A stretch of 26,256 nucleotides of DNA from a virus (lineage: Duplodnaviria > Caudoviricetes), in the IMG/VR virus record IMGVR_UViG_3300022862_000025, positions 1 to 26,256 of that record, one strand, 5' to 3'. The notes under the pieces were generated by a model. That model was given only the letters and a program-made list of their open reading frames with translations. It did no database searches and had not been told where the DNA came from. The stretch's first letter is position 1; the number at the start of each line of letters is the position of its first letter. Position numbers and translations under genes: made by a program. Shown piece after piece: positions 7,999 to 21,801 of this stretch.

Positions 7999-8180
7999 CA
8001 CTCTGTTACTTTCATCCAACAATTAAGGATTACTGACTAATCTAATTTAGATTAGCGGAAAAGGTACTTCTTTAAAGTGTCTTTACACTTGACCTTCTCT
8101 CTATACCTTTACACATACGTATAGATCAGACTGTATCATTAACTCATAATCCACCTTTAATCACATTCCACTGTTTAATA
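7999..8180 (-). ncRNA. Group I intron 3' core (3' strands of P8 and P7, P9 domain, omega-G)
   Basis: P8 3' strand AUUAUGAGUUA (8140-8150). S-like element UGAUACAGUC containing P7 CAGUC (8129-8133). P9 hairpins UCUAUAC/GUAUAGA, AAGUGU-AAAG-ACACUU and CUAAUCUA/UAGAUUAG. Terminal G at 7999. Confidence 0.88.
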
Positions 8181-8190
8181 AGGTGAAGTA

Positions 8191-8220
8191 ATAAAAAAGA
8201 GTAGGGAATTAATCCTACTC
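8191..8220 (-). terminator. Intrinsic terminator after the homing endonuclease gene, inside the intron
   Basis: GAGTAGG-ATTAATTC-CCTACTC followed by TTTTTTAT. The stem overlaps the TGA stop. Confidence 0.75.
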
Positions 8221-9682
8221 ATGATAATTTGCCGTATTTTTGTTCATATTCTTCAAGATACATCCAGTAATATCCTTTAAGTATACTCTCATTACCTTCG
8301 CATCTATCCTTAATGTATCTACCTGTTCCTCTATTATTGTAAACTTCTATCCCAGCTTTACTCATAGAATGGTATACCCTTATAAAACAATAACTTTCGT
8401 CCATTTGTACTATCGATTTAGACTTTTTATTATTTATCGCAACTCTCTCATTCATTGAATCTTTATTATATGAGCATAGTTTCAAACGTTGTCCGATTTT
8501 CAAATACTTAGTTATAGTAGCAGTACTTAATTTAAACATGTTTGATAATTCCGCATTGCCAAAAGTAGGGTTTTCATCAAAAGCTTTACAGACAAAAATA
8601 ATCATTGACGATAATGACTTTTTCTCTATTTCTTTCCAATCAACATTACATAACTTCAACTTTTCTAACAATCCCAATTCTCTTATTCTATTTGATAAAA
8701 CATCTATATTTCTATCTGAAACTTCTATGTTATAATAATGTTCAATTCCATTTTCTCTAGCTAGTTGTTCTTTTAATCTGTCGTTCTCTTGTTCTTCGTC
8801 TAAGGTTCTGTGGCTTAATGTCTCAAAAGTCCTTTTGTAATGTTGCTCTCCGTTAATTTCTATAATTGTTGATATTTCATCTAATATAAAATCATAACGT
8901 CTTCCTTGAGAATAATTGGTTGTTGAGTCATATTTAAAATTCACACCATTATCAGATAAAAGATTAAGCATTACTTTTTCACCAAAACTAATCCCATCAT
9001 TGCATATAGGGCAACATAAACCTTGTCTTACCACCGTTACCAATTGCTTATTTATACGATTTCCACATCCACATACGAATTCTAATTTCTGCTTTGATCC
9101 ATGAGAATATATATCTGCATCAGACTTATTTAAAAGAATATCTTTTATACGTGGGTGAGTAAATCCTACATTATTATACCCTACTAATACTCTTCTATTA
9201 CTACAATATGGACATCCATTGCCATTTTTCCTATCACCAACCATTGCATCATAATAATGTCCTTTGTCACATACCCACCAAAATTTTTGTTTTTCACTAG
9301 AAGGAGTGACATCATAAGGAGTTAAATGACCATTCAATGTAGGATGCCATTCCTTTATTAATTGTGGGTACAGTATTCCTAGATTGTAATGTTCTGATGC
9401 TACTTTTCCTATACACACCTTGCAACCATGACCATTTACTTTATTTTTAATAAATTGTGGTACAATGTTTCCGCATTCCATACATTTGAAGAACACTTTC
9501 TTACCACTTCCATAACTTACTTTATATATATCATCATTAACATTCTGAGTAAAATCCCAAACTTCCCATAAATCTGGGCGGTGTTTCAACATAGCGTTGT
9601 CTTTCAACTTATCCACCATGCTCCAATCTAATTCTTTGCCAGTTTGAAAATTTATGTATTTATTCTCTTTAGCTTCACACAT
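8219..9682 (-). CDS. Intron-encoded putative homing endonuclease (zinc-ribbon repeats, Vsr-like/EDxHD-type nuclease, NUMOD1-like C-terminus)
   Basis: 487 aa with an AGGAGGT RBS. Three zinc-ribbon-like repeats (e.g. EWHPTLNG.LTP.DV...WWVCDKGH...GCPYC). Nuclease motifs SFGEK, YDF, EINGEQH and NDRLK. C-terminal IVQMD...YHSMSKAG...KGYYWMY resembles NUMOD1. Confidence 0.8.
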   Translation of the reverse strand: MCEAKENKYINFQTGKELDWSMVDKLKDNAMLKHRPDLWEVWDFTQNVNDDIYKVSYGSGKKVFFKCMECGNIVPQFIKNKVNGHGCKVCIGKVASEHYNLGILYPQLIKEWHPTLNGHLTPYDVTPSSEKQKFWWVCDKGHYYDAMVGDRKNGNGCPYCSNRRVLVGYNNVGFTHPRIKDILLNKSDADIYSHGSKQKLEFVCGCGNRINKQLVTVVRQGLCCPICNDGISFGEKVMLNLLSDNGVNFKYDSTTNYSQGRRYDFILDEISTIIEINGEQHYKRTFETLSHRTLDEEQENDRLKEQLARENGIEHYYNIEVSDRNIDVLSNRIRELGLLEKLKLCNVDWKEIEKKSLSSMIIFVCKAFDENPTFGNAELSNMFKLSTATITKYLKIGQRLKLCSYNKDSMNERVAINNKKSKSIVQMDESYCFIRVYHSMSKAGIEVYNNRGTGRYIKDRCEGNESILKGYYWMYLEEYEQKYGKLS

Positions 9683-9686
9683 TATT

Positions 9687-9794
9687 AATTACCTCCTACA
9701 GTAATTTCATATTTCCTAAATATAATTAAATAGGGAAGTAAAGTTAGGATGCTTTACTTGTCAATAAGGTTTGCAATTCCTTGTCTATCCCTAT
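9687..9794 (-). promoter_or_regulatory. Structured 5' leader of the endonuclease mRNA
   Basis: Closing stem AUAGGGA/UCCCUAU encloses hairpins AAGG-AAUUGCAAA-CCUU and AAGUAAAG-CAUCCUAA-CUUUACUU. A further hairpin AAUUAC/GUAAUU surrounds the SD. Confidence 0.55.
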
Positions 9795-9800
9795 ATTTAA

Positions 9801-9829
9801 ATATTACCATATTAATAATCTTATTACAA
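9801..9829 (-). promoter_or_regulatory. SigA-type promoter for the endonuclease gene
   Basis: TTGTAA, 17 nt spacer, TAATAT with a TGn extended -10, just upstream of a structured leader. Confidence 0.6.
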
Positions 9830-9859
9830 CTTAATATTATTTATTTTATGTATTTATTA

Positions 9860-10020
9860 TATTAAATAGTGGAATGTGATTAATTTAAATTATGAGTTAC
9901 ACCTTGTCAGTCGTTCGAGCGTTTCTTTGATTGACGCTTCGGTGATCGTCCACTTACGTGGATTTCCCCCGATATTCGGTGTTCAATATAATGTCGCCAT
10001 TATAAGGGGCTATTATGTTA
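9860..10020 (-). ncRNA. Group I intron 5' catalytic core (P1-P6, 5' strands of P7 and P8)
   Basis: P2 UAUAAUG-GCGA-CAUUAUA (9987-10004). P3 ACACC/GGUGU. P5 UCCAC-GUAA-GUGGA. P6 GCGU..ACGC. P7 5' strand GACUG (9908-9912). P8 5' strand UAACUCAUAAU (9889-9899). Confidence 0.88.
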
Positions 10021-11127
10021 ACCTACAACGTTTCCTGATTCACGAGTTGCTGCACCTATAGCAGTAGTGTAACCAACAAGTTCTTCCATACTTACGCCAT
10101 ACGCCTTGGCGGACTGTGCCGCACGACCCATCGATAATGCTAGGTCTTTAGTAGTGATTGAAAAGTTGTTGTCTACCTCATTTAAAGCATCTGCAATTCT
10201 AATTGAATCTTCCGCAGCAACGTTGAATGCCAATTGCCCAGCGACCAAAGTATCTACAGACTCTTTAGCGTTTAAATCTGATATATTAGTAAACATTTGT
10301 GCAGTGTTAGTTAAATCTAATGAGTCAGAAGCATTATATCCCATACGAGCAAACTCATTCAGTATTTCAAGATATTCAGTAGTGACGCCTGATAATTCTC
10401 GCACATTTACTAAAGACTTTTCTATCATCTCATTGAACTGGTACTCAGGAGCATTCATGACTCTGGCTAAACCTATGAGAGCGCTGTCTAATTCGATTGT
10501 ACGCTCAGTCATATCTTGAATACCACGAATAGGGGCATAAAATGCTGTAGATGCTAACATCCAGATTGGAAATTTTGTAAAAGCAGTAGAGAAGGCGTTG
10601 CCTAATTCGTTAGTTGACTTGGATGCATCCCTAGCATCAATATTAAGTCGTTTAATACTTTCACGTAATGCATTAATTTCTCTTTGATTTTGCTTCAAAG
10701 ATGCAGGATTCATTACTTGAATATTCTTCAACTTATCAATTTCTGATTTTAATTCAGCAACTTTAGACTTATCCATTGCTCTAGGTAACATTTTTTCTAT
10801 ACGATACAATTCAGTACTTAATTTACCTAGTGAAGCAACTTGTTTATCGTACATATCAGTGACTTTAGATGTTTCACTAGATGCTGATTTATTACTTCCA
10901 GTGCTTGAAAGTTGATTCTTTAGCTTGGACACTTGCTTCTGTAATTCTTCAATATCCTTACTTGATGCTTTTAATCCACTAGAGTCTATCCCTACTGAAA
11001 TTAATAATGGATTTTTATCATAATACTTTTTCAACGCTTGTACGTATTGATCAATATTTTGTTGTGACCTACCTCTATTGACATCTAAACTCATTAAGAG
11101 TTCAATAGGGTTACTTGTCATAGACAT
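10021..11127 (-). CDS. Tail tape measure protein, exon 1 (N-terminal coiled coil and start of the TP901-type TMP domain)
   Basis: AAGGAGG RBS. TMP motifs EFARMGY, IADALNEVDNNF and ELVGYTTAIGAATRESGNVVG. The TAA at 10018-10020 is the first three bases of the intron. Confidence 0.9.
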
Positions 11128-11160
11128 TTATTATTCCTCCTTATTATATTTTTAGGGTAA

Positions 11161-11187
11161 ATAAAAAACACCATAAGAAGATGGTGT
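11161..11187 (-). terminator. Intrinsic terminator directly upstream of the tape measure gene
   Basis: ACACCAT-CTTCTT-ATGGTGT followed by TTTTTAT. Confidence 0.75.
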
Positions 11188-11208
11188 GAAAATGATTAAA
11201 CTATGTAT

Positions 11209-11733
11209 TTAATTTAATTTATTCAACACTTTTTCTTTTAATGCTTTGGTCTGCACTTGTGACTCAATAGTTTGTTTATGTAAATCTAATTCTTTCTTGT
11301 ATAGCATTGCTAATTCTTTCGTTTTCTTAAGTTGGTTAAATACTTTTTCTACTTCCTCAAGTGAAAATAAATCTTCAAGGAAAAACTCAAAGTGCCCGTT
11401 ATCATAGAGTTCATACATATAGTCAATATTGTTTTCGATTGACAATTTAGATAAAGTGTCAAATAGGGAAGTAAAGTATTTGATAATTAAATAACCAGTA
11501 TACTGGTCAACATGAGCATCATTTGTTAAGTATTCCATTTTATTATCTTTACAATATTGAATAGTTTCAATCAATTCCACAACTAATTTATCTTTTTTAA
11601 TTTGACTAAATTTAGGGAAGTAGGTGATACTGTGACCTTTTTCTTCGTTGAAGTGATAAACCTCTTCTCTATTAACATTTTCTGCTCGTTGCGTAAAGAA
11701 TGATGGGTCAACCGTGTTAATTTTATTAGACAT
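11209..11733 (-). CDS. Hypothetical phage protein (positional candidate for a tail assembly chaperone)
   Basis: 174 aa with an AAGGAGA RBS. No motif recognised; lies just before the tape measure gene. Confidence 0.6.
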   Translation of the reverse strand: MSNKINTVDPSFFTQRAENVNREEVYHFNEEKGHSITYFPKFSQIKKDKLVVELIETIQYCKDNKMEYLTNDAHVDQYTGYLIIKYFTSLFDTLSKLSIENNIDYMYELYDNGHFEFFLEDLFSLEEVEKVFNQLKKTKELAMLYKKELDLHKQTIESQVQTKALKEKVLNKLN

Positions 11734-11768
11734 ATTAAAATCTCCTTTTATGTATTTATTTAATTAAA

Positions 11769-11799
11769 ATAAAAAAGTCTAAGTATATAACTTAGACTT
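11769..11799 (-). terminator. Intrinsic terminator after the lipoprotein gene
   Basis: AAGTCTAAGT-TATAT-ACTTAGACTT followed by TTTTAT. Confidence 0.75.
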
Positions 11800-11814
11800 A
11801 ATTGTATTCTATAC

Positions 11815-12342
11815 CTATTTTATTAATTCGTATCTTCTCACCACTGCCATATTGCCTTGACCTTGTATATAGCCTTTTTTAGGTATGAACGCTGCTAGTC
11901 TCATATTAACATTCGTAGTTAATAATGATTTGTACATACTATCAAATGACTCTCTATGGAAATACAAATACCATGAATCAGAATATCCTCTATCAAGAGG
12001 AGTTAATTGTACACAAAAATAAGATTTTTCATTAGTATAGCCATAATTATAATAATCACATAATTCAGCAGTTCCACTTAAGAAGAAATCCGTGTTTAAA
12101 TTATTTACTAAATCATACTGAACTTCTTTTCCTGTTAAACTAAGATTGTATTTTTCCATAAACTTTTCATCTTCGCTTAATTCTGGTTCGACTGGTTCAA
12201 CATATTCAGTAGCAGTTTGCTTCAATGGATCTAATTCTTCTTGATCATTACTAGCAGTTACCTTTTCATCACTTTCTTTTCCACATGCAGACAATAGGAA
12301 AGCAAAACAAAATAATACAATCCACAATCTGTTAAATTTCAT
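11815..12342 (-). CDS. Lipoprotein of unknown function (moron)
   Basis: Signal peptide MKFNRLWIVLFCFAFLLSAC with lipobox LSAC, then an acidic linker. AAGGAGG RBS and own terminator. Confidence 0.8.
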   Translation of the reverse strand: MKFNRLWIVLFCFAFLLSACGKESDEKVTASNDQEELDPLKQTATEYVEPVEPELSEDEKFMEKYNLSLTGKEVQYDLVNNLNTDFFLSGTAELCDYYNYGYTNEKSYFCVQLTPLDRGYSDSWYLYFHRESFDSMYKSLLTTNVNMRLAAFIPKKGYIQGQGNMAVVRRYELIK

Positions 12343-12418
12343 AATTAAACCTCCTTAAATACAAAAATATGTAATCTAAGGATAGCATAATTATGAAATT
12401 TATGATATATCTAACGTT

Positions 12419-12631
12419 TTACTCATTTTTAAAGTCAATAAGCTGTGCAATGTCATCTATTTCTAATACTTCCGCAATTCTAGCCAAGTGTACTCTGTTC
12501 ATTGCTGTTTTATTATTAGTACTGATTTCACTTATAGTAGCTCTTCTTATGCCTGTCATTTCTGATAATTGTTCCTGTGTTAAATTTTTATCCTTTAGAA
12601 TTTCTTTAAGTTTAACCTCTATAGACTTCAT
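12419..12631 (-). CDS. XRE/Cro-like HTH transcriptional regulator
   Basis: LKEILKDKNLTQEQLSEMTGIRRATISEI is a helix-turn-helix. The ATG at 12631 (MKSIEV) has a GGAG/GGTG SD upstream and is preferred over 12652. Confidence 0.85.
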   Translation of the reverse strand: MKSIEVKLKEILKDKNLTQEQLSEMTGIRRATISEISTNNKTAMNRVHLARIAEVLEIDDIAQLIDFKNE

Positions 12632-12681
12632 AGAACACCATTCTCCATTCATGTTTCATTTATTATATTATATCGTTTTTC

Positions 12682-12764
12682 CGTAAAAACGTACAGAAAA
12701 ATGTTGACACTAATTTTCATTACATGCTACATTGTTAATGTACTAAAATACGTACAAACGTACA
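12682..12764. promoter_or_regulatory. Candidate operator pair CGTA(A/C)AAACGTACA (12682-12695 and 12751-12764)
   Basis: 13/14-identical direct repeat flanking the promoter in the divergent region between the HTH and orphan genes. Confidence 0.5.
12704..12733 (+). promoter_or_regulatory. SigA-type promoter for the 12803 gene
   Basis: TTGACA (12704-12709), 18 nt spacer, TACATT (12728-12733) with a TGn extension. Confidence 0.65.
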
Positions 12765-12802
12765 AAATGAATAAATTACACAAAAGAAGAGGAGAATGAA
12801 AA

Positions 12803-13243
12803 ATGAACACATTAATCGTATCAATCAAACTTATCGCAAAAGGTAATATTCCATCACAAGTTGAGCTAATGGGTAAGCCAATCTATGAGAATGGTAAAAT
12901 TAAAACGTTTGAAGTAATTTACCAAGAATACAATTATGATGAAGATAACTGTCTAGATTTCAGCATCGAAAACTTTAACATGTCAGCAAATTGCATCCAA
13001 GAATCTACATACAAATTCACCAATTATTTCACCTTCAACGTAATAAAGGAGGGGATAGCTGAATTTGATTTATGCGTATTAGTTGAAAATGTGCATGACG
13101 ATTTAATCAATGACATCGATAATTTATTTACTCCTGATAATATTACAATTCCAAACTTCACATTCAAGGATGATTGCTATTTCTTTGAATTGGACATACA
13201 AGTTGTTGAAATAGTTAAAGCTGAAGTAATTGATATTTATTAA
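12803..13243 (+). CDS. Acidic hypothetical protein
   Basis: 146 aa with a GAGGAG RBS, own promoter and terminator. The only credible plus-strand gene in the window. Confidence 0.75.
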   Translation: MNTLIVSIKLIAKGNIPSQVELMGKPIYENGKIKTFEVIYQEYNYDEDNCLDFSIENFNMSANCIQESTYKFTNYFTFNVIKEGIAEFDLCVLVENVHDDLINDIDNLFTPDNITIPNFTFKDDCYFFELDIQVVEIVKAEVIDIY

Positions 13244-13254
13244 TTTTAATAGGG

Positions 13255-13287
13255 AAGGTGAGAGTTGATTTTCTCACCTTTTTGTTT
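13255..13287 (+). terminator. Intrinsic terminator after the 12803 gene
   Basis: AAGGTGAGAG-TTGATT-TTCTCACCTT followed by TTTGTTT. Confidence 0.8.
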
Positions 13288-13318
13288 ATGTATTTAGTTT
13301 GCTAATTATGTGTAAGTA

Positions 13319-14107
13319 TTATGCTATTTCTTTTTGTTCGTCTTGTTCAATCATCGGAAGTACATCATTTTGCTTTAGGATATCATATAAAAATAGTCTT
13401 CATTTTTGTGTCCATTTAGTACTAATTCTTGTTTTATCTTCATCATATGTATAAGTTTCGGTTTTAGTATATCCTTTATCATGATACTTAGAATATAAGA
13501 ACCATACTTTACCTTGCTTATACTGAATACCTAGACCATGTAACAGTTGATTAAATTTATTAGCACTCATACCATAGTCTTTAGAAATCTCGGTAACTGT
13601 CATAGCAGAAGGTGACTTCAGTACAACATCATAATAAGATACTTTAGGTTTCATTTCACCAATTTGTTGTTTAAAAGTACTGTTTTGAAGTTGTAATTGT
13701 TGCTTCTCACGCTGTTCCTCAATCCACTTCTCAGCACGTTGAATAGGATCATCAATCATATATGAAGCTATTTGAACTTGAGATTTCAATGCATTCTCCA
13801 TCTCTTCAAACCTTGTAACATATGTAGCAGTAAACAAAATTCCTTTTTCGCCAGTCATCTTATTAGCAACCATGTCACATCCTTTGCGAGTGAGAAGGAA
13901 GCAAGGCATTTCTTTGTTTTGGCTATTATAATACTTATGTTGAATGAAGAAATTAGCACTCCCGAAATCTTGGGAGTCCAAAACACCAGAGTATCTTTTG
14001 ATATCAGCAAGTAGATGGTCGTGTCGCTTATTAACCATTTCTGCCACATCTCTACTATCTGTTACTAACTGTCCTTCATGATTAATTACTTGTAATTCCT
14101 TTACCAT
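13319..14107 (-). pseudogene. Rha-family/ANT (KilA-C) phage antirepressor with a premature TGA at 13400-13402
   Basis: N-terminal Rha domain DSRDVAEMVNKRH..LTRKGCDMVANKMTGEKG..YVTRFEEME. C-terminal ANT domain MKPKVSYYD..WTQK*RLFLYDILK continues in frame to TAA at 13319. The truncated ORF is 13400-14107. Confidence 0.75.
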
Positions 14108-14177
14108 TAAATCTCTCCTTCATATTATGTATTTTATTAATTAGTAGATGTGTTACATAAATCTTATCTACAATTAA

Positions 14178-14206
14178 ATAATAACAGGAGAGTGAAAATA
14201 ATTCAA
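14178..14206 (-). promoter_or_regulatory. SigA-type promoter for the antirepressor gene
   Basis: TTGAAT, 17 nt spacer, TATTAT with a TGn extended -10. Confidence 0.65.
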
Positions 14207-14298
14207 GAGTAAATTATGTATTTTGTTAAATAAAATTCTGATATCATATAAATAACTCAAGTAAACCCCTAAAAAGAGTAGGGGAGTAGTTCAGTTAT

Positions 14299-15327
14299 TT
14301 ATGTATTTGCTTCTTCTAATTTCTTTTTAGCTTTCTCTTCTTTTAACTTAGCGATCTTTTTACGAACATCAGCTTTAGATGCTGGCTTAATATATGATTG
14401 TCGAGTGGTCTCTACAGATTTATGATTACCCATTTCGGCTGCTAAAGCCAAGTCTCCAGTTGTTTCATAAATTTGATTCAGTGCAGTTTTACGAATGCTA
14501 TGCGAACGAAAGTCATCGATTCCAATAATTTCACCAAAACGTTTAATTCTCCATTGAATAGTCTCTTTAACCATTTGTCGATATTCACCATTATGTTTAG
14601 TTATAAATAATGCATCTACTTCAGAGTTATCCATTTCCTTACGCATCTCTAACCATTCTTCAATCAAAGACTTAGTATCTTCTTCGAATATTACTTCAAC
14701 TTTATATCCACGCTTTTCACGAATATCTTCAAATAACATTCCTTCTAAATCTAAAGATGATAAAGTTAACTTTGAAATAGCTCCGACACGATTGCAAGAT
14801 TGAATCATGATGTTCCAAATCAATCTATCTTGAATGTCATATTTTTTATCTTCAATTAAACCTTGTGAAATTTTATCAATTTCTTCTTGTGCTAAGTAAT
14901 GAGAAGTGATAATACTTTCCTCATTTGCACCTTTCATTCGTTCTAACTTGTTAGCAAAGGGATGCTTATCGATAAATTGCCTTTTCTCAGACCAATTGTA
15001 GAAGCTGGAAATAACAGAAAGCTTAGTATTGATTACTTTTTTATTATTACCTAGAGTTTCTTGGCAGAAACTAATGAATCCTTCCATAATATCTACAGCA
15101 TCATCTAAAAAGTCTTCATCGTACAGACTGATGTTATCACATTCTTCCATAAGGTAAACTAAAAACTGATTAAAATAGTTTTGATATACTTTATAAGTTG
15201 TATCTTTAACATCTCTGTTTTTCTGAATATTGCTCTTTAAATATTTTTCATACTGCTTAAAATTATCAGGATTCACTTTTCCTAATTTGTCTTTGGTGAA
15301 ATACCTAATTTTTGTGATCTTACTCAA
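14299..15327 (-). CDS. Tyrosine recombinase (YomM-like)
   Basis: 342 aa, TTG start with an AAGGAGA RBS. SAM-like N-domain. Catalytic set R (CNRVGA), K (EKRG), HxxR (HSIR), H (GNHK) and Y (RQSY). Position matches SPbeta yomM as recalled. Confidence 0.9.
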   Translation of the reverse strand: MSKITKIRYFTKDKLGKVNPDNFKQYEKYLKSNIQKNRDVKDTTYKVYQNYFNQFLVYLMEECDNISLYDEDFLDDAVDIMEGFISFCQETLGNNKKVINTKLSVISSFYNWSEKRQFIDKHPFANKLERMKGANEESIITSHYLAQEEIDKISQGLIEDKKYDIQDRLIWNIMIQSCNRVGAISKLTLSSLDLEGMLFEDIREKRGYKVEVIFEEDTKSLIEEWLEMRKEMDNSEVDALFITKHNGEYRQMVKETIQWRIKRFGEIIGIDDFRSHSIRKTALNQIYETTGDLALAAEMGNHKSVETTRQSYIKPASKADVRKKIAKLKEEKAKKKLEEANT

Positions 15328-15371
15328 TTTAACATTCTCCTTTCAAAAGAATGAAATAAAAAGACTTGAAG

Positions 15372-15878
15372 CTAACGAACTTCAAATCCAAGTTTCTTGT
15401 ATGCGTTCTTTATAGCTTCAATTAAATATGTAGGATTAGCTTCAATTCGTCTAATTGTTTCTTGTACAAATGGTCTAGCTTCATTCCACTTACCTTGCCT
15501 ATACCAATTATCACCATTAAAATCTCCATCATTGATTACATCAGTGATAAATTGTCCATTTAGACTATCAATAGGTTGTTCATAAATAGGAGTGTAGTGA
15601 GTTTGACCTTTTGTTAAATTTTCAAATAGAATTCTCACTGTACCGTTTTTAACTTCAACTTTAGTGATTTTCATATTACGAACATCTGACAAACCGCCAT
15701 CATTCCGTCTACGTTTATATTCAACTGGTATGTATTTTCCATAAACTACATCATAAACTGATTGTGACATTGTTTTAGCTAATACTGATTCAATCCTCTT
15801 ATCACTAAATACCTGTTTAGCATTACGTTCTAAATAGCGTTGTATCTGATTTAAGTCTTTAAATTGTATTTTAGACAT
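15372..15878 (-). CDS. Hypothetical virion morphogenesis protein (possibly HK97 gp10-like)
   Basis: Motifs VYGKYIPVEYKRR..GGL and ARPF near the C-terminus. Start at 15878 (MSKIQ) preferred because of the upstream GGAG. Confidence 0.55.
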   Translation of the reverse strand: MSKIQFKDLNQIQRYLERNAKQVFSDKRIESVLAKTMSQSVYDVVYGKYIPVEYKRRRNDGGLSDVRNMKITKVEVKNGTVRILFENLTKGQTHYTPIYEQPIDSLNGQFITDVINDGDFNGDNWYRQGKWNEARPFVQETIRRIEANPTYLIEAIKNAYKKLGFEVR

Positions 15879-15894
15879 AATAATCTCCATTGAT

Positions 15895-15927
15895 AATAAA
15901 AAGAGAGTAGGGGAGTTAACCCTACTC
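15895..15927 (-). terminator. Intrinsic terminator after the tail tube gene
   Basis: GAGTAGGG-TTAACTC-CCCTACTC followed by TCTTTTTATT. Confidence 0.75.
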
Positions 15928-15947
15928 GTTATTATGTATTTATTTAA

Positions 15948-16919
15948 TTAAGCTACTACAACTTCAATAACATCAGTGTAAGTACCGTCAGATACTTTAA
16001 CATTTGTTTCACCTACAGCTACAGCAGTAATCTCTCCGTTAACAAAAGTAGCAATTGCTGCATCATCAGTGTCAAAAGTAAGCGTTGTATTGTCCATTAA
16101 AACATTACTATAACCACCGCCACGAATACCATAAGTGATAACCTTTTGTTTTTCACCAACTGCTAACGTAGCTTCAGAAACATCAGTTGCTAACATTGAC
16201 ACCTTGATACTTGTGCCATTTACAGGTAACCATTTGATATAAGCATAATTATCATCATTGTCAACTAAAGTCTTACCATTTAATGTGAATTGAGATACAC
16301 CATCATGAGTAAGATTAAGTGATAATGCGCCATCAAGTTTATAACGAGGAGCTTCAATTTGTTGTTCATATGCTTTGTCACCATCAGAATTGAAGATATC
16401 TGAAGTCAATACTAATTTATATGATTTAGGGAAATCGTTAGCCGAGATTGTTAATTCGTCAACTTGAGCACTATATTGATATGCTACCTTTAATTCCTTA
16501 TTAGCATATGCAATATCTGTAATGTCTTTACCTGTTGGAGCTTTTGTAACATGATTAGCTGCTAATTCAACATAAACATTACCAATTGGTGTTTGAGAAA
16601 GTGATCCTTTGCCAGATGCATCAAACTTAACTTTTTCTTCTGTGAAATATGAGCTCATTTTATTTTTAATTTCTGAACCAGTTTGTAATGCTAAATATAC
16701 AGGGGAAAAATCAGCGGCTTCAATTTGGAAAGTTAAAACTTTTTGGTAGTTGTATACGAACTGAAGTTTAGAACCTCGTCCTGCAAATAGTTCATTTTCT
16801 TGCATAGTTTGTTCCATAGTAGAACTTAAAAGTGCAGTACCTTTAACAACTAATGTATCATTAGATGTGTCAATTAATAAGGCGTCTGCTACTGATACTG
16901 CAAACAATTTTTCTGTCAT
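15948..16919 (-). CDS. Major tail (tube) protein with a C-terminal Ig-like (Big_2) domain
   Basis: 323 aa, beta-rich. C-terminus TLAVGEK..DDAAIATFVNGEITAVAVGETNVKVS is Big_2-like. Followed by a terminator. Confidence 0.75.
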   Translation of the reverse strand: MTEKLFAVSVADALLIDTSNDTLVVKGTALLSSTMEQTMQENELFAGRGSKLQFVYNYQKVLTFQIEAADFSPVYLALQTGSEIKNKMSSYFTEEKVKFDASGKGSLSQTPIGNVYVELAANHVTKAPTGKDITDIAYANKELKVAYQYSAQVDELTISANDFPKSYKLVLTSDIFNSDGDKAYEQQIEAPRYKLDGALSLNLTHDGVSQFTLNGKTLVDNDDNYAYIKWLPVNGTSIKVSMLATDVSEATLAVGEKQKVITYGIRGGGYSNVLMDNTTLTFDTDDAAIATFVNGEITAVAVGETNVKVSDGTYTDVIEVVVA

Positions 16920-16953
16920 TATAAAATAACCTCTTTCTTAATTATGTATTTTT

Positions 16954-17712
16954 TTATTTATTTACTAAACCATTCTTTTTACTGATTTGATCTAGTTGTT
17001 CCTTAGTTAATACTAAATCATCATCAGATGACTTATCTTTAATATGATCCAACCAGTGAGGGATAGTTGTCCCTTCTTTAAATGAAACCATACCGCTGTA
17101 TTGTGCGTTCTGTAATATATCAGCGGACTTAATTAAATCAATTCTTTCAATCTCTTTTCTGAATTGATATATTGTTAAATTTCTTATTTCATCATAAGAT
17201 AGTTTTTGAACACATCTATAAGCAAAAATTTGCTGTTCTAAATCTGCCATACGTCCATTTTTTTTCGATAGGTGTACCTTAGCATCTGCTTTTGCTTTAT
17301 CAAAATCACTACCTAATGAATCGTCTTTAGTTTCTATTAAATTTTGAATACCTATAATCTCACGAAACTTATCAAAATCTCGTTCATGTATTGAATATTT
17401 ATCATCTATAGAAATAACAATTTTATTCTTTTCATCTAAGTAGAATCCAATGTCATTTCCTCTTGTTACTAACTCAATCAGCTTGATTAATTTATCAAGT
17501 AAATGTTCTGCCTCTGGATTTCGACTTACTGCAATTAGAAATGATAAATATGACATCTTAATAATTGCAGGATCACTCATAGAATTCTTTGGTATTATTA
17601 AGCAATTTGACGCTTCGTAAAAATCAATCATGTTCTCTACTTTTACAGGGTATATTGGTGTGTTTTTTATGTATTTAGGATTTCCCCATACGTTATCAAA
17701 ATCAATCTTCAT
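16954..17712 (-). CDS. Phage protein (YomV-like, possible tail assembly chaperone)
   Basis: 252 aa. Motif LSYDEIRNLTIYQF and C-terminal PHWL; assigned by synteny. Confidence 0.55.
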   Translation of the reverse strand: MKIDFDNVWGNPKYIKNTPIYPVKVENMIDFYEASNCLIIPKNSMSDPAIIKMSYLSFLIAVSRNPEAEHLLDKLIKLIELVTRGNDIGFYLDEKNKIVISIDDKYSIHERDFDKFREIIGIQNLIETKDDSLGSDFDKAKADAKVHLSKKNGRMADLEQQIFAYRCVQKLSYDEIRNLTIYQFRKEIERIDLIKSADILQNAQYSGMVSFKEGTTIPHWLDHIKDKSSDDDLVLTKEQLDQISKKNGLVNK

Positions 17713-18254
17713 TTATGTACTCTCTTAGGTGATTCTTGGAGTGAGGTAGCAGTATAAGCCATTTTGTAACCTATAAAACCTTTAGGAGTATTAGCAATGG
17801 GGGAACCAAATGCTAAAATAAAATCACCAACATCTGTGATAGGATTGAGAAGTAATAATTCATTTAATCTATCGCAAATCCAAGTCATACGAAAATCTAC
17901 TATATCAATATCCACATGTACATATACATCAAAATTGTAAACTTGGTCAGATGCATATGGATTATCCTGTAATCTTCCTGCAAATTTATTTTGACTTGTT
18001 TGAGGCTTACGAGTTCCTGTATAAAAACAAATACGAGACATCTTAGAGTCCAAAACTAAATCATAAGTTTTATCTGATGGAAGTAGTATTTTTGAAATAA
18101 TTGTATACTTATCATCTCTACTCAATATATCTTTCTTTGATTTATCTAAAGGGTTATCTAATGCGTTCTTAGGAACATAATGAAGAAGTCTTAGTAATTC
18201 TTCATCTTTAGATAATTCAATGTATATCTTTTCTAACGACTCTTTTAACTTCAT
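17709..18254 (-). CDS. Head-tail or tail-completion protein (YomW-like)
   Basis: 181 aa, ATGA overlap with the upstream gene. Lies between the head-closure and tail genes. Confidence 0.55.
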   Translation of the reverse strand: MKLKESLEKIYIELSKDEELLRLLHYVPKNALDNPLDKSKKDILSRDDKYTIISKILLPSDKTYDLVLDSKMSRICFYTGTRKPQTSQNKFAGRLQDNPYASDQVYNFDVYVHVDIDIVDFRMTWICDRLNELLLLNPITDVGDFILAFGSPIANTPKGFIGYKMAYTATSLQESPKRVHK

Positions 18255-18931
18255 CCATTATCCTCCTCACCAGAATTACTTCTACCTTCGCGTTCACCTG
18301 TAATACGTAGAATACCCACTTTATTAATTGAAGATGATGGGTCAATACGAATAATACGATAAGTTTCATTGTATAAATTAAATTGTTCGTTTAATTCAAT
18401 TGAAGGGGCTTCAGTGTAAGGGATAGTTATCATTACTTGGTTTGCTAATAAGTTTACAGGTTCGTTGGTATCTGCAATAGCAGTAGAAGCGTCATTCATT
18501 TTTACTACACAAGGTACTTGAATTATTTCTCCAGGAATAATGTCGTAAACAGGTCTTCCTAAATTATCTATACCTACTTGAACCTTTTTATCCTCTAATT
18601 TAACAGGAAATGATGCACTACATAAACGTACTTCTGCTTTTCTATAAATCCTATTGTCTTCTGATTTAGTTACAATTAACCAATACTCACTATCGTATTC
18701 AATCAAGTTTCCTCGTTCAATATCAACTATGTGACCAATTATTTTCATACCTTCACCATCAGCATCCCATTTTTGATTCATGAGAACTTTAGCTAGTTTG
18801 TCATAATTAATTTTTACATCATAAGATGAATATCCATTTAATGAACGATTCAACAAGAATAATGAGTCGTGTTCAATTTTTTTAGTCACATCAATTCTGT
18901 GATAATTACTAAAGTCTTTCAACTTCATCAC
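18251..18931 (-). CDS. Head-tail joining protein (YomX-like)
   Basis: 226 aa. Beta-barrel motifs RGNLIEYDSEYWLIV and FNLYNETYRIIRID; assigned by synteny. Confidence 0.55.
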   Translation of the reverse strand: MMKLKDFSNYHRIDVTKKIEHDSLFLLNRSLNGYSSYDVKINYDKLAKVLMNQKWDADGEGMKIIGHIVDIERGNLIEYDSEYWLIVTKSEDNRIYRKAEVRLCSASFPVKLEDKKVQVGIDNLGRPVYDIIPGEIIQVPCVVKMNDASTAIADTNEPVNLLANQVMITIPYTEAPSIELNEQFNLYNETYRIIRIDPSSSINKVGILRITGEREGRSNSGEEDNG

Positions 18932-19166
18932 CTACAATCACTAATTGATAAGGCAATCTACCAAGACTTCCACTTACATCAAGAATATTATTCTTAATTT
19001 CTAGTAATTCATCGTTAGTTTCTAATGATTCTCCTACATACTTTTCAATTAAATGTAAAGTAGCATTATTTTTACGTTTAAGAAACCTCATATACATTTG
19101 GATAGGTTCTAATCCATCAATAAAGAAATCATTATCTATGTCAACTTTTATGTTTTTATGAATCAT
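18909..19166 (-). CDS. Small hypothetical phage protein (YomY-like)
   Basis: 85 aa, GGAGG RBS, ATGA overlap with the upstream gene. Confidence 0.6.
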   Translation of the reverse strand: MIHKNIKVDIDNDFFIDGLEPIQMYMRFLKRKNNATLHLIEKYVGESLETNDELLEIKNNILDVSGSLGRLPYQLVIVGDEVERL

Positions 19167-19564
19167 AAAAAGTCCTCCATAGCATTTAAAATAATTTCAT
19201 CTATTAAATCTTCTTGTTCCTTAACAGACTTATTGAGAGAATCTAATTGTGTTTTAAAATTTCTAACTCCTACATCAGCAGAAAATGGGTTGTATAATTT
19301 TTCATAAAATACTCTTGAGTTTATTAACTGAATCAACTTTATATAAGCTGATAGTAGAATCAAATGATCTTCACCTGATAATCCTTCTACAGTCTCAGAT
19401 GCATTATTACAAACAGCAGTAGTACGAAGTCTGTTATTAACTCTAATAACTGCATTTTGTATTACAGATGGTATTTGATCTGGATGAGGTAAGTCTACAT
19501 CTTCTACCATGTAATTCTCTAAAAAACTAGTCCATATACAATCGTAAGTAAGCAAATTTAACAC
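19163..19564 (-). CDS. Putative head-tail adaptor (YomZ-like)
   Basis: 133 aa helical protein two genes downstream of the capsid gene. Exact start uncertain. Confidence 0.55.
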   Translation of the reverse strand: MLNLLTYDCIWTSFLENYMVEDVDLPHPDQIPSVIQNAVIRVNNRLRTTAVCNNASETVEGLSGEDHLILLSAYIKLIQLINSRVFYEKLYNPFSADVGVRNFKTQLDSLNKSVKEQEDLIDEIILNAMEDFL

Positions 19565-20032
19565 CTACTTTTCTTCATCTAATTCATTTTTGTACCATTG
19601 TTCAATCCATGAAGTTTTAGCACCTGATAATTCATCTTTAATATCTTCAGCTACACCTTTGATAAAACTTTTCTCAGATTTAACTGTAACTTTATTAAGT
19701 GTTGACTTCATTTTATTAATATTTCCAGAAAGAATTGCTACGATTTCATCATGACTATGAGAGTTATCTAAAACTTCTTGTACATCTAGAATCTCATCCA
19801 TTACAGCTTCTTTATTCGGTTGTTCATCAGCAATAACTAATTCACCATTACGAATACAGTTACCACTCATATTCAACTCATCAAATACTTCACGAGGAAC
19901 TGCTTGTACATGAGGCTTACGACCTTCTATAAATCCATTCCATTTATAAGGAATATTCTTGATACCATTCTTATAATTAACATAGTAATCAGCAGGGCGT
20001 TTACGCACTAAATAAATTTTTTCGTTTTCCAT
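19565..20032 (-). CDS. Hypothetical phage protein (YonA-like)
   Basis: Start at 20032 (MENEK) with a GAGG RBS. The track start at 20086 would run through the capsid terminator. Confidence 0.65.
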   Translation of the reverse strand: MENEKIYLVRKRPADYYVNYKNGIKNIPYKWNGFIEGRKPHVQAVPREVFDELNMSGNCIRNGELVIADEQPNKEAVMDEILDVQEVLDNSHSHDEIVAILSGNINKMKSTLNKVTVKSEKSFIKGVAEDIKDELSGAKTSWIEQWYKNELDEEK

Positions 20033-20056
20033 TACATCTTCCTCTTTTCCAAATAT

Positions 20057-20084
20057 AATAAAAGAGGAGATATTAAATCTCCTC
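20057..20084 (-). terminator. Intrinsic terminator after the major capsid gene
   Basis: GAGGAGAT-TTAAT-ATCTCCTC followed by TTTTATT. Confidence 0.75.
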
Positions 20085-20100
20085 ATATGTATTTATTTTA

Positions 20101-21123
20101 TTAAAGTGTGACAGCATCATCCTTAACAAATCCTACTGCTTCACCTAAAATGAAATCAACAGCTAAATCGACTTTGATATCCATCTCTACACGCATTAAG
20201 TTCTTATTGAACTCAGAGTATTGACGTGCTCCACCAAATTCAACAAGTTTAAGAGGTTTGTAACCTACTCCACTAGAGAACATGTAACCTTCGTTAACAG
20301 GTAATTGAGTACGTTCATTAGCTGAACCAATAGAGTTGATAATCCAAGGATTAACAAGGTTCACAGCAGTAGTACGAGCAATTTTAGTAACAGCCATGCT
20401 TTCCATTAACTCTTGTTTGTACTCATTAACTAGTAATGGAGCATATGTAGCACTTTCCGGTAATTGTAAAGCGAAGTGATCAATAAGAGAAGTATCACCA
20501 ACGAATACAGCTTTACCACCAAGACGAGCAAAACGAGAAGCGAATTTAACATATTGATCGATAGTTAGGTTATTACCAGTTAATTGGTTGGTAGTAGGAA
20601 TACGAGAATCAGCTACAGCAGCTTGGAATAGCTTAGTGATTAATTCAAATTTTAAAGCTACAATAGCATCTGCTGATTTATTAACTAAGTTGTTGAATGC
20701 TTCTATATCTCCACGACCTAATGCATCCATTTCATAATAAATACCTGTAGAGTATTCTTTAGGAACTAAAGTACGTTGAGCATTTGAAGCAACACGTACA
20801 TGTTCTACTGACGCACCATTAGCAGACCATACAAACTTAGCATTGAATTCTTGTGGAATGTCATATAAGAAAGCATTACCACGCTCGGTACGTTCTTGAC
20901 TAGCTAGGATTTCAAGTAATTCATAAGATTTACGTTGAGCGATAATTTCTGCTTCCTTAATTACTACGTTGTTGAATTGTTGCAATTCATGTTGAGAAGG
21001 AATAGTTCCTTGTCCAAAAGTCTCATTCATATAAGCTTTAAATTTAACGTCATCTGAAGCCTCTGTTTTGTTGTTTAGAATACGGTTAAATAAACCTGAT
21101 AATTTTTCAGTATCGATTGCCAT
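20101..21123 (-). CDS. Major capsid protein (YonB-like)
   Basis: 340 aa, follows the scaffold and decoration genes and is followed by a terminator. Size and position match the SPbeta capsid gene as recalled. Confidence 0.75.
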   Translation of the reverse strand: MAIDTEKLSGLFNRILNNKTEASDDVKFKAYMNETFGQGTIPSQHELQQFNNVVIKEAEIIAQRKSYELLEILASQERTERGNAFLYDIPQEFNAKFVWSANGASVEHVRVASNAQRTLVPKEYSTGIYYEMDALGRGDIEAFNNLVNKSADAIVALKFELITKLFQAAVADSRIPTTNQLTGNNLTIDQYVKFASRFARLGGKAVFVGDTSLIDHFALQLPESATYAPLLVNEYKQELMESMAVTKIARTTAVNLVNPWIINSIGSANERTQLPVNEGYMFSSGVGYKPLKLVEFGGARQYSEFNKNLMRVEMDIKVDLAVDFILGEAVGFVKDDAVTL

Positions 21124-21801
21124 AAATAAATTTCCTCTTTTCTAATTGTTTTTATGTATTTGTTTAATTAAACACCTTTTATTACTACTAAACGAATAGT
21201 TGGTTGTCCTAATGTGTAAGTAGCGTCAAGCTCTGTACGACGAACTTCGAAGAATACAGGGTGAGTAGTTGCAGTAGCAGCAGGATCTACTACAAATTTC
21301 TTTTTAGTAGCATCGTAAAATGCTTTGTCCCCAACTTTAATTTCAGTACCTGCAGTAATGTGTTCATAAGCTGAAACGTCAAATAATAAGCCATTAGTTA
21401 AGTAAACTACACGTTGTTTTTCTCCTGCGCCATTATAAAATTGAGCGATGTCATCTTGAGGTAGATATGTACGTTCTACACCTGCTGTTAAGAAGATGTG
21501 ATTAGCATCAGTTTCATCTGCAAATGCTTTAACTTGCAATTCGTTAGCTCCACCAATATTTACTGATTTACCACCAACTGTTACAGTAACGTCATTAGCA
21601 GATAGCTTACCTTGCACTAAATGGAAGTTGTCAATGTCCTCAGTGAAGAATGCGCCATTTGCATAATCTTGAATATATTGTTGTGCAGATACTAAGTTAC
21701 CAACTGAACGTACATCTAATTTTGATAAAGTATTAAAAGCTTTAGTTGCCATAAATAAATTTCCTCTTTTCTAATTGTTTTTATGTATTTGTTTAATTAA
21801 A
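21117..21801. repeat. Perfect 56-bp direct repeat (21117-21172 and 21746-21801)
   Basis: ttgccataaataaatttcctcttttctaattgtttttatgtatttgtttaattaaa occurs twice. Each copy spans a stop codon, leader, RBS and ATGGCAA. Confidence 0.95.
21168..21752 (-). CDS. Capsid decoration/cement protein (YonC-like)
   Basis: 194 aa beta-rich protein between the scaffold and capsid genes. Shares its leader with the capsid gene. Confidence 0.6.
   Translation of the reverse strand: MATKAFNTLSKLDVRSVGNLVSAQQYIQDYANGAFFTEDIDNFHLVQGKLSANDVTVTVGGKSVNIGGANELQVKAFADETDANHIFLTAGVERTYLPQDDIAQFYNGAGEKQRVVYLTNGLLFDVSAYEHITAGTEIKVGDKAFYDATKKKFVVDPAATATTHPVFFEVRRTELDATYTLGQPTIRLVVIKGV

Follow-up and report, generated by a model that had tools for sequence, protein, structure and literature searches.

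A transcription-oriented box at gene boundaries of SPbeta-like phages as a candidate MazF cut site and repressor-binding site

In a 26,256-nt stretch of viral DNA (the window) and in related phage genomes, we found a box of about 20 nt (TTAAWTAAWW-AAATACATAA, with AAATACATAA in its middle and the invariant core TACATA, or UACAUA in RNA) placed at gene boundaries and oriented with transcription. The core is the sequence cut by MazF, and therefore the box likely marks lytic messages for destruction by this RNase. In the clade rich in the motif, it is probably also a DNA site bound by a phage repressor. Together, these two roles would make the box a dual-coded silencing tag, a reading that we hold at roughly even odds (about 0.5) on sequence evidence. 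The copies in the window and the intron that contains two of them are as follows.

21781..21800, minus strand: leader box (TTAATTAAAC + AAATACATAA) of a yonC-like virion gene, within the 5' UTR and directly ahead of the RBS
21152..21171, minus strand: box in the leader (5' UTR) of the major capsid gene, which duplicates the 21781 leader
20085..20104, minus strand: box with T as last base, overlapping the capsid stop codon and abutting the terminator hairpin 20084-20064
17667..17676, minus strand: short form in the first codons of a yomV-like gene
16942..16951, minus strand: copy ahead of the RBS of a yomU-like virion structural (probable tail tube) gene
15932..15951, minus strand: box over the yomU-like stop codon, followed by the terminator hairpin 15927-15905
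15729..15737, minus strand: intragenic 9-base copy, overlooked in the preliminary description
14299..14308, minus strand: copy supplying the TAA stop of a tyrosine recombinase gene, followed by the hairpin 14284-14266
14214..14233, minus strand: promoter-class box ahead of the antirepressor gene, outside that transcript
14125..14134, minus strand: copy in the leader (5' UTR) of the antirepressor gene (Rha-N/KilAC)
13286..13305, minus strand: box downstream of the antirepressor coding sequence, in the 3' UTR of that unit and ahead of the hairpin 13283-13252
11748..11767, minus strand: box between the terminator of the HTH-lipoprotein unit (11799-11775) and the RBS of a 174-aa gene
11201..11210, minus strand: copy with G as last base at the stop of the 174-aa gene, followed by the hairpin 11187-11168
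9846..9865, minus strand: intronic box (tape-measure gene), with a weak promoter-like site for the endonuclease gene downstream of it
9652..9661, minus strand: short form within the opening codons of the homing-endonuclease-like gene that the intron encodes
7999..10020, minus strand: intron, probably of group I, that interrupts the tape-measure gene and contains two copies

The 12 exact copies of AAATACATAA reported in the preliminary description were all recovered where it had placed them, on the minus (coding) strand, with none on the plus strand. Its rough estimate of well under one copy per strand by chance agrees with dinucleotide shuffles (n=100; mean 0.41, maximum 2), and the intergenic-matched background that it had proposed also revealed enrichment: 9 exact copies, and 0 antisense, in 2,489 bp of intergenic DNA (74% AT), against a mean of 0.05 and a maximum of 2 in 5,000 per-segment shuffles. 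Both of its nine-base matches are real, but the count of two was incomplete, the intragenic copy at 15729-15737 being the third. As a 9-mer, the motif occurs 15 times on the coding strand and 0 times on the other, and all 15 carry an exact UACAUA in the transcript sense; one-mismatch copies of AAATACATAA number 10 on the minus and 4 on the plus strand. The copies at 21152 and 21781 are not independent, because they share an identical 56-nt 5' region. A control with the reversed pattern was disregarded because that pattern overlaps the motif itself.

The placement of copies beside RBSs, hairpins and the recombinase stop holds, as does that upstream of the sigma-A-like promoter at 14206-14178 (the box begins 17 nt upstream of its -35), whereas the promoter proposed downstream of the 9846 copy is a weak match judged by eye. 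Genes were called by a simple ORF script, and class counts therefore carry some error. The antirepressor unit has four sense TACATA in total, and the HTH-lipoprotein unit has one site, at 12368. The reported lack of copies in the tape-measure coding sequence is true but uninformative, since only 0.7 TACATA are expected in the 7,566 bp of exons, where 0 were found (P(0)=0.45). An Rfam search of the window and the intron returned no match.

Conservation in related phages, one of the points on which the preliminary description had staked its proposal, was found: complete relatives carry 54-71 copies each, on both genome arms and oriented with transcription, and a Lysinibacillus prophage is among the motif-rich complete genomes. 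AAATACATA occurs in 41-58 intergenic regions per rich genome, while SPbeta has four intergenic 9-mers. The genomes are mutually related (SroF 91-94% alike within pairs), so pooled counts overstate independence; the counts for the Lysinibacillus record G008 include flanking host DNA, and for phage LC76P1 the motif was checked in bases 85,001-135,000. As to whether orientation follows transcription, 215 intergenic copies in four genomes agree with the flanking genes and 9 run against them. Start codons lie 24-34 nt downstream of the start of 112 of 339 intergenic copies. The element had been framed as late-gene control, but in three near-complete relatives the 9-mer is sparser in the late arms (3.8-4.7 per 10 kb) than elsewhere (6.4-7.2 per 10 kb), with the arm limits set by us for this comparison. 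Since both arms carry copies and early regions are the denser, the box is not a late-gene signal.

Evidence for the RNA role comes from the core itself. Two accounts give U^ACAUA as the strict hexamer of MazF/EndoA, describing it as conserved across Bacillota and as functional when placed in the 5' UTR of a reporter (PMC11780869; bioRxiv 2026.08.06.743204). Among single-mismatch variants in four genomes, A-to-T changes in the flank occur at 9-15 times the shuffled level, and changes at core positions T4, A5, A7 and A9 at 0-0.9 times that level. Sense TACATA is enriched between genes (361 vs 66 in shuffles), also where the AAA flank is lacking (158 vs 62). In coding DNA, TACATA exceeds synonymous shuffles in nine of nine phage sets (z 4.6-11; 17 vs 7.3 in the window), whereas TACAT followed by T, G or C is unenriched in the same sets (|z| ≤2.4), so the pattern follows the sixth-base A specificity of the MazF site, with UACAUA raised and UACAU-U/G/C not. 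Host DNA has 58 TACATA vs 73.7 in synonymous shuffles. Even in SPbeta coding DNA, AAA-TACATA is enriched (11 vs 2.1). Against the strand specificity, antisense TATGTA is also raised in the coding DNA of G009 (z 4.2). Predicted accessibility is equal at boxed and coding sites (0.62 vs 0.60). The Lysinibacillus host of G008 encodes alr-mazE-mazF-rsb, and its MazF closely resembles EndoA (E 4e-58); for the window, the host is inferred from a single named prophage. A phage-encoded MazF was considered as the cutter and set aside: none was found in G001, G006 or G009, an EndoA-like gene is present in G004 and in phage Perkons (moderate motif density), and G002 has an unrelated PemK. The window also occurs as assembled contigs in 24 soil RNA runs, but the four examined have flat, DNA-like depth, with no joints or end pile-ups, and for that reason these contigs are uninformative on cleavage or splicing.

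The repressor genes of the relatives are spared. Across nine genomes, sroDEF contains two sense TACATA, where genome density predicts 33.3, yet 45 TACAT pentamers and 22 antisense sites do occur; in 28 genes, two sites compare with 9.9 under codon shuffling. Six integrases have 0 TACATA vs 2.8 expected. Counter-oriented, presumed lysogenic genes (n=19) show no depletion (6 vs 5.4; antisense hexamer 3 vs 4.4), and the site at 12368 in the window's HTH-lipoprotein unit likewise runs against a general sparing of lysogen-expressed genes. The sro, MazE-mimic and sigma genes were seen in relatives, the sequence of the window's own phage having been read without its early region.

The gene for the 62-aa phage MazE mimic stands on the other side of this division: in six of six records from relatives, its 5' UTR carries the box with its TACATA core. 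The predicted complex of the mimic with host MazF scored 0.86 vs 0.00 for the best control (contact agreement of 90% or more, partner pLDDT of 80 or higher) and passed a mark that 51 of 78 solved pairs and 2 of 108 mismatched pairs reach, though this pass may reflect the model's memory of the solved MazE-MazF complex. AimR was not found in four of four rich records.

A probable DNA-binding layer is suggested by fixed spacing to the -35, by tolerance of a presumably uncleavable variant and by the fact that no other operator is left. Boxes are present at early and repressor-operon sigma-A promoters; 15 of 44 promoters have an upstream core, in 13 of the 15 at 12-15 nt before the -35, and sroD is preceded by a box at 75-85 nt in 6/6 rich genomes and 0/3 others. 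TACACA variants, with flank and position kept, occur at 11 times expectation (7 vs 0.6) and adjoin site-free genes in 4/4 cases, as cleavable boxes do in 33/49. Inverted second copies sit in promoter spacers, at two promoter types only. After masking, no other operator motif was found in G002, G006 or G008; SPbeta, Perkons and G004 each have one of their own, and that of Perkons is oriented, in 37 intergenic regions vs 1 reversed. A TTA at -10 is present in 39-67% of rich-clade sites, compared with 0/37, 1/34, 4/18 and 1/10 elsewhere. SroF homologues are found in five rich records and MrpR domains in G001; no sroF is visible in the window. SroD/E/F of the rich genomes form one clade; their SroF proteins are 45-53% alike between subgroups, with putative DNA-reading helices that differ by eye, and 21-24% identical to SPbeta SroF.

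The preliminary description offered an RNA-processing signal and a protein-binding site as alternatives, and both fit the evidence. Either could also stand alone. If the core were selected purely as an RNA cut site, the flank would be A/T-rich context, arising through duplication or as an UP element, and no protein would be dedicated to it. All of the MazF evidence applies to this account, as do the one duplicated leader in the window, the flanked hexamer in SPbeta coding DNA and the A-rich TACATA in the UTRs of G009 (37 sites), Perkons (34) and G004 (18), where SroF is unrelated and the phage has its own operators. However, it does not explain the constant spacing to the -35 at unrelated promoters, copies outside those transcripts, the inverted spacer copy, the frequency of TACACA or the lack of another operator candidate, and we consider it unlikely. 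Somewhat less probable again is an asymmetric operator or stoperator at which a monomeric SroF-type repressor blocks initiation and elongation, the hexamer match being incidental. Monomeric SroF recognizes a long, asymmetric box, and the SroF/MrpR operators SPBRE and Phi3TRE resemble the clade's box in being asymmetric and AT-rich, in lying at early sigma-A promoters (including repressor-operon and yonP-type ones), in sharing ATACATA and in the presence of a SroF homologue. At ten of ten published peak promoters of SPbeta, the SPBRE boxes contain template-strand ATACATA, although the search pattern required those letters. SPBRE has approximately ten sites, in the -35/-10 spacer with the core on the template strand, whereas the clade's box has 55-75 intergenic copies per complete genome and lies mostly upstream of the -35 or between genes with its core on the sense strand; the overlap with the spacer expected of an SPBRE was found only as the inverted copies at two promoter types. 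Placement and orientation match those of the mycobacteriophage L5 (cluster A) stoperators, as described in PMC9283540, which are likewise many, asymmetric, oriented with transcription and situated in short intergenic gaps on both arms; here too there are more than 20 such intergenic sites. L5 differs in host phylum and repressor fold, and in the clade the core is a known RNase site; a stoperator role of the box is putative. The oriented motif of Perkons and the shared SroD/E/F clade also favor an operator, but such a site alone leaves unexplained the exact boundaries of the MazF core and its sixth-base specificity, flankless sense enrichment, avoidance in sroDEF and the occurrence of the short form where a clade uses different operators.

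The remaining proposals fare worse. That the box is a promoter for the clade's sigma factor or its YonO-like polymerase is improbable. A 206-208 aa SigF/G/K-like sigma is limited to six rich records (absent from G009, G004, Perkons, SPbeta and LC76P1), and the spacing of a third of the copies to start codons would suit a promoter, but of 55 long boxes near an RBS, 21 have a Shine-Dalgarno sequence starting no more than 6 nt from the core, too near were the core a -10 element; neither the copies directly ahead of terminators nor those 5' of sigma-A promoters fit, and nothing is conserved beyond -12, though a register with its start site inside the box is conceivable. The window has the gene order of SPbeta, with a YonO-like enzyme encoded upstream of its terminase, yet SPbeta late genes use one start site without such a motif. 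The YonO idea of the preliminary description fails: SPbeta has YonO and no enrichment, including in the stretch between its P-yonO primers; YonO type does not track the motif, and the enzymes of motif-rich genomes are only 22-25% alike. Its boxA/nut-like antitermination reading is very improbable: five copies in the window, and 13 of the 282 contexts left after deduplication, do lie 10-20 nt ahead of a terminator, but most copies have none behind them, no conserved boxB-like hairpin was found, copies are denser away from the late arm, and the core is avoided in the repressor genes. Hardly credible is a dif-like recombination arm or a replication-oriented signal such as KOPS or Chi. The reverse complement of the motif presumably resembles the XerD arm of dif, and in G001, as roughly in G002, the orientation flips where the GC skew does. 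The dif reading fails because there is no conserved second arm, the logo being flat where it is due; a site of this kind would not be expected to keep such strong spacing to start codons and -35 elements, the counter-oriented genes lack the arm-oriented form, and SPbeta and Perkons have a recombinase at the same place without the array. The yomM-type recombinase was rejected as a reader, being 59-68% alike across motif-poor and several motif-rich genomes, and the window's copy is of another type.

The closest known counterpart of the dual-coded tag is the MazF (EndoA) system of SPbeta and phi3T with its sensitized transcripts and AimX/YosL mimics, which shares the hexamer, its enrichment on the sense strand of lytic genes, the sparing of the sro operon and a MazE mimic encoded by the phage. 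In the part of that account available, site counts cover ORFs only, whereas here stereotyped boxes stand at gene boundaries; the rich clade, unlike SPbeta and phi3T, tags the mimic's own leader and lacks a detectable AimR. MazF promotion of lysogeny in the SPbeta family has been called uncharacterized, possibly working through preferential cutting of lytic transcripts (PMC10769878). Under dual coding, MazF set free in stationary phase, stress or lysogeny would cut polycistronic lytic RNA beside ribosome-binding sites and strip its protective 3' hairpins, and sroDEF and integrase mRNA would survive. During lysis the mimic would block MazF, and because the mimic's own mRNA is a MazF target, the pair would form a two-state switch. 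Less firmly, a protein specific to the clade, with SroF or SroE the likeliest, might recognize the TTA-extended form on DNA, acting at promoters and possibly as stoperator-like roadblocks. Host stress could thereby keep the phage dormant. As a tentative scenario that we would not quite back at even odds, an arbitrium-less SPbeta-like clade may have fused repressor operator and MazF site into one genome-wide box, silencing every lytic unit on both DNA and RNA, and would choose between lysis and lysogeny through a bistable switch of MazF and MazE mimic that senses the growth state of the host in place of a peptide signal.

The result is a map of putative MazF targets, with one stereotyped site at each gene boundary; the repressor genes lack it, and the antitoxin mimic's own leader carries it. 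If dual coding is true, a single element would be read by both a phage repressor and a host RNase, which is unusual, and the phage would volunteer its RNA to a host toxin as a sensor of state. One T-to-C change separates the proposed RNA role from the DNA role, and therefore the question is directly testable. A 138,851-bp metagenome contig, read within 10 kb of its capsid gene, encodes a capsid protein identical to that of the window.

The element is real and genome-wide, and it is not a late-gene system. In the window, the one-strand 10-mer AAATACATAA, the middle of a box of about 20 nt, occurs 12 times on the minus strand and 0 times on the plus strand (shuffles give 0.41), and its nine-base form 15 times against 0. 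The preliminary description had placed it at gene boundaries, and an intergenic background bears this out: the 2,489 bp of intergenic DNA hold 9 exact copies, where 0.05 are expected. It had also drawn attention to the tape-measure coding sequence, which indeed holds no copies, but this absence is at chance level and is not informative. At least five exact coding-strand copies are found in 5 of 75 capsid-anchored loci, including the window's own phage, four in one locus, and 0–2 in the remainder. Whole records of three motif-rich, SPbeta-like relatives carry 54 (G001), 71 (G002), and 56 (G006) copies, spread over both arms, and the motif strand flips there together with gene direction and GC skew. 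In four large genomes, 215 copies agree with their flanking genes and 9 oppose them, and in nine motif-rich sets 339 of the 429 9-mers lie between genes or at a stop codon. SPbeta has 16 9-mers, 11 of them inside genes. Control of late genes, as had been proposed, does not fit, as motif density is lower in late arms than elsewhere. The 20-nt form is present in 9 of 301 host-family genomes, with multiple copies in two; one contig (G227:C107) has six exact boxes, with a strand flip between 38.6 and 76.8 kb, and is probably another prophage of the motif-rich clade. A 56-nt leader is identical at window positions 21746–21801 (yonC-like gene) and 21117–21172 (capsid gene).

The window covers the head-tail gene cluster of an SPbeta-like phage, with terminase, portal, capsid (43% identical to SPbeta YonB), tail, and tyrosine recombinase genes, an insertion made up of antirepressor, HTH, and lipoprotein genes, and a tape-measure gene interrupted by an intron. 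Two of its features are as follows.

7999–10020, minus strand: intron, probably of group I, that splits the tape-measure gene; last base T in the upstream exon and G in the intron
13321–14107, minus strand: antirepressor ORF, whose stop at 13400 falls within KilAC (domain match over 96 of 108 model positions)

Group I splice rules served as general background. Removal of the intron gives a 2,521-aa frame whose junction matches the intronless proteins of SPbeta and a Lysinibacillus prophage (G008); the intron encodes a 487-aa endonuclease-like ORF, and Rfam returned no match to it. The antirepressor appears frameshifted, with similar-looking sequence continuing in another frame, and the same is seen in two metagenome contigs. 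Over 11,073 bp the window is identical to a viral contig that extends it by 15 kb and adds 13 copies, a YonO-like polymerase in two parts, and genes 62–96% identical to those of motif-rich relatives. Since these include a Lysinibacillus sp. BPa_S21 prophage, the host genus is likely Lysinibacillus. A divergent YonO-like RNA polymerase is split into 927-aa and 271-aa genes (G311:14533–18131, locus L199; G002:58068–61645), the large part being about 25% identical to canonical YonO. Hairpins with GAGTAG/CTACTC arms (window 8199–8220, 14266–14293, and 15905–15927, and in relatives) form a recurring terminator of the clade.

We give a probability of roughly 0.7 to a role of the element in cleavage by MazF. 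The core TACATA is nearly fixed, while a flanking A may change to T, and B. subtilis EndoA/MazF cuts strictly at U^ACAUA (accessible part of PMC11780869). According to the available portion of bioRxiv 2026.08.06.743204, the site is conserved across other Bacillota, acts when placed in a 5' UTR, and reduces the levels of its co-cistronic neighbours. Intergenic sense TACATA numbers 361 against 66 in shuffles (158 against 62 without the AAA flank), and all 9 phage coding sets contain more TACATA than their synonymous shuffles; TACAT followed by T, G, or C is not enriched, and TACATA is slightly depleted in 232 kb of host coding DNA. Partial text of two preprints reports enrichment of the pentamer in SPbeta and phi3T ORFs (bioRxiv 2023.04.27.537455) and degradation of most phage mRNA by MazF, the sro operon excepted (bioRxiv 2025.11.27.690993). 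The repressor operon sroDEF holds 2 TACATA against 33.3 or 9.9 expected under two nulls, with the pentamer and the antisense form still present. However, several observations count against the MazF reading: TACATA is not depleted in counter-oriented genes, the window's HTH-lipoprotein unit holds one site, predicted accessibility at boxed sites is not above that of coding sites, and the genomes in the pooled counts are related. Earlier work already covers the connection of MazF to SPbeta-family phages, as well as SroF operators and stoperators; a literature search with most subscription papers beyond reach gave no description of AAATACATAA, of boundary-placed MazF boxes, or of a fused operator/cut site. 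Further sources, each available in part, were PMC5467207 with its supplement, PMC10516654, PMC9283540, PMC12361552, and PMC11323111.

In all 6 records, the box stands ahead of the RBS of a MazE-like ORF of 61–63 aa. The predicted docking of its product on host MazF scores 0.86 (best control 0.00) and passes a threshold that 51 of 78 solved pairs and 2 of 108 mismatched ones also pass; the model may owe this pass to having learned the MazE–MazF complex. Two phage-encoded mimics, YosL and AimX, are known to bind MazF and inhibit it (PMC10769878, as far as accessible). The mimic lies in a module conserved in G001:32135–33307 (L123) and five relatives, together with a gene of ~85 aa and one for a sigma factor of sporulation type. 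In G002, a PemK-like gene preceded by a small partner (31338–32932, L181) lies within the late region and is unrelated to host MazF by BLAST. Psychrobacillus phage Perkons and G004 encode EndoA-like MazF (59% and 65% to the host type).

The longer box suggests a DNA site as well, a role nearly as probable as cleavage; that both hold together is an even bet. TTA lies ten bases upstream at 44–76% of intergenic and 6% of coding sites, and is restricted to the motif-rich clade (39–67% against 0/37, 1/34, 4/18, and 1/10 elsewhere). Across four motif-rich genomes, 44 sigma-A promoters were predicted; the core stands upstream of 15, in 13 cases 12–15 nt from the -35. All 6 motif-rich genomes compared have the box ahead of the sroD promoter, and none of the 3 other genomes does. 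Variants with TACACA, expected to resist cutting by MazF, retain flank and position, and promoter spacers hold inverted copies. UP-element geometry and the dif-arm sequence served as general background. The main alternative is a clade-specific sporulation-type sigma factor reading the box, and both the spacing to the SD and the terminator-class and promoter-class copies speak against it. For DNA binding, we infer that the reader would most likely be SroF or SroE. SroF acts as a monomer on long asymmetric boxes, and its SPbeta operator, SPBRE, shares ATACATA with the box. An operator motif search after masking gave Perkons and G004 motifs of their own, SPBRE in unmasked SPbeta, and weak five-site motifs in G009 and G001; nothing was left in G002, G006, and G008.

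The window's capsid, yomU-like, and antirepressor genes have the box at both ends, ahead of the RBS and of the terminator hairpin. When free, MazF would cleave these boxes, opening leaders to 5' trimming and removing the 3' hairpin; trimming is reported to reach further if A follows the cut site (PMC11780869, in part). Repressor and integrase mRNAs would be spared, favouring lysogeny, and lysis would need a build-up of the MazE mimic, whose own tagged leader could make the switch self-reinforcing. AimR was not found in 4 of 4 motif-rich records (two at least 90% complete; SPbeta as positive control), so the input may be the host's own MazF state.

Perkons (L178, L179, L004) carries a different oriented motif, TATAATTAAG(G/T)TG, which occupies promoter spacers and about 35 intergenic regions and is in places fused to TACATA; it is a probable stoperator-like SroF operator. 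In phage LC76P1 (L005), TATACTAT occurs 12 times on the coding strand against 0 on the other, and CCTACTATTA 5 against 0, possibly another clade-specific oriented motif.
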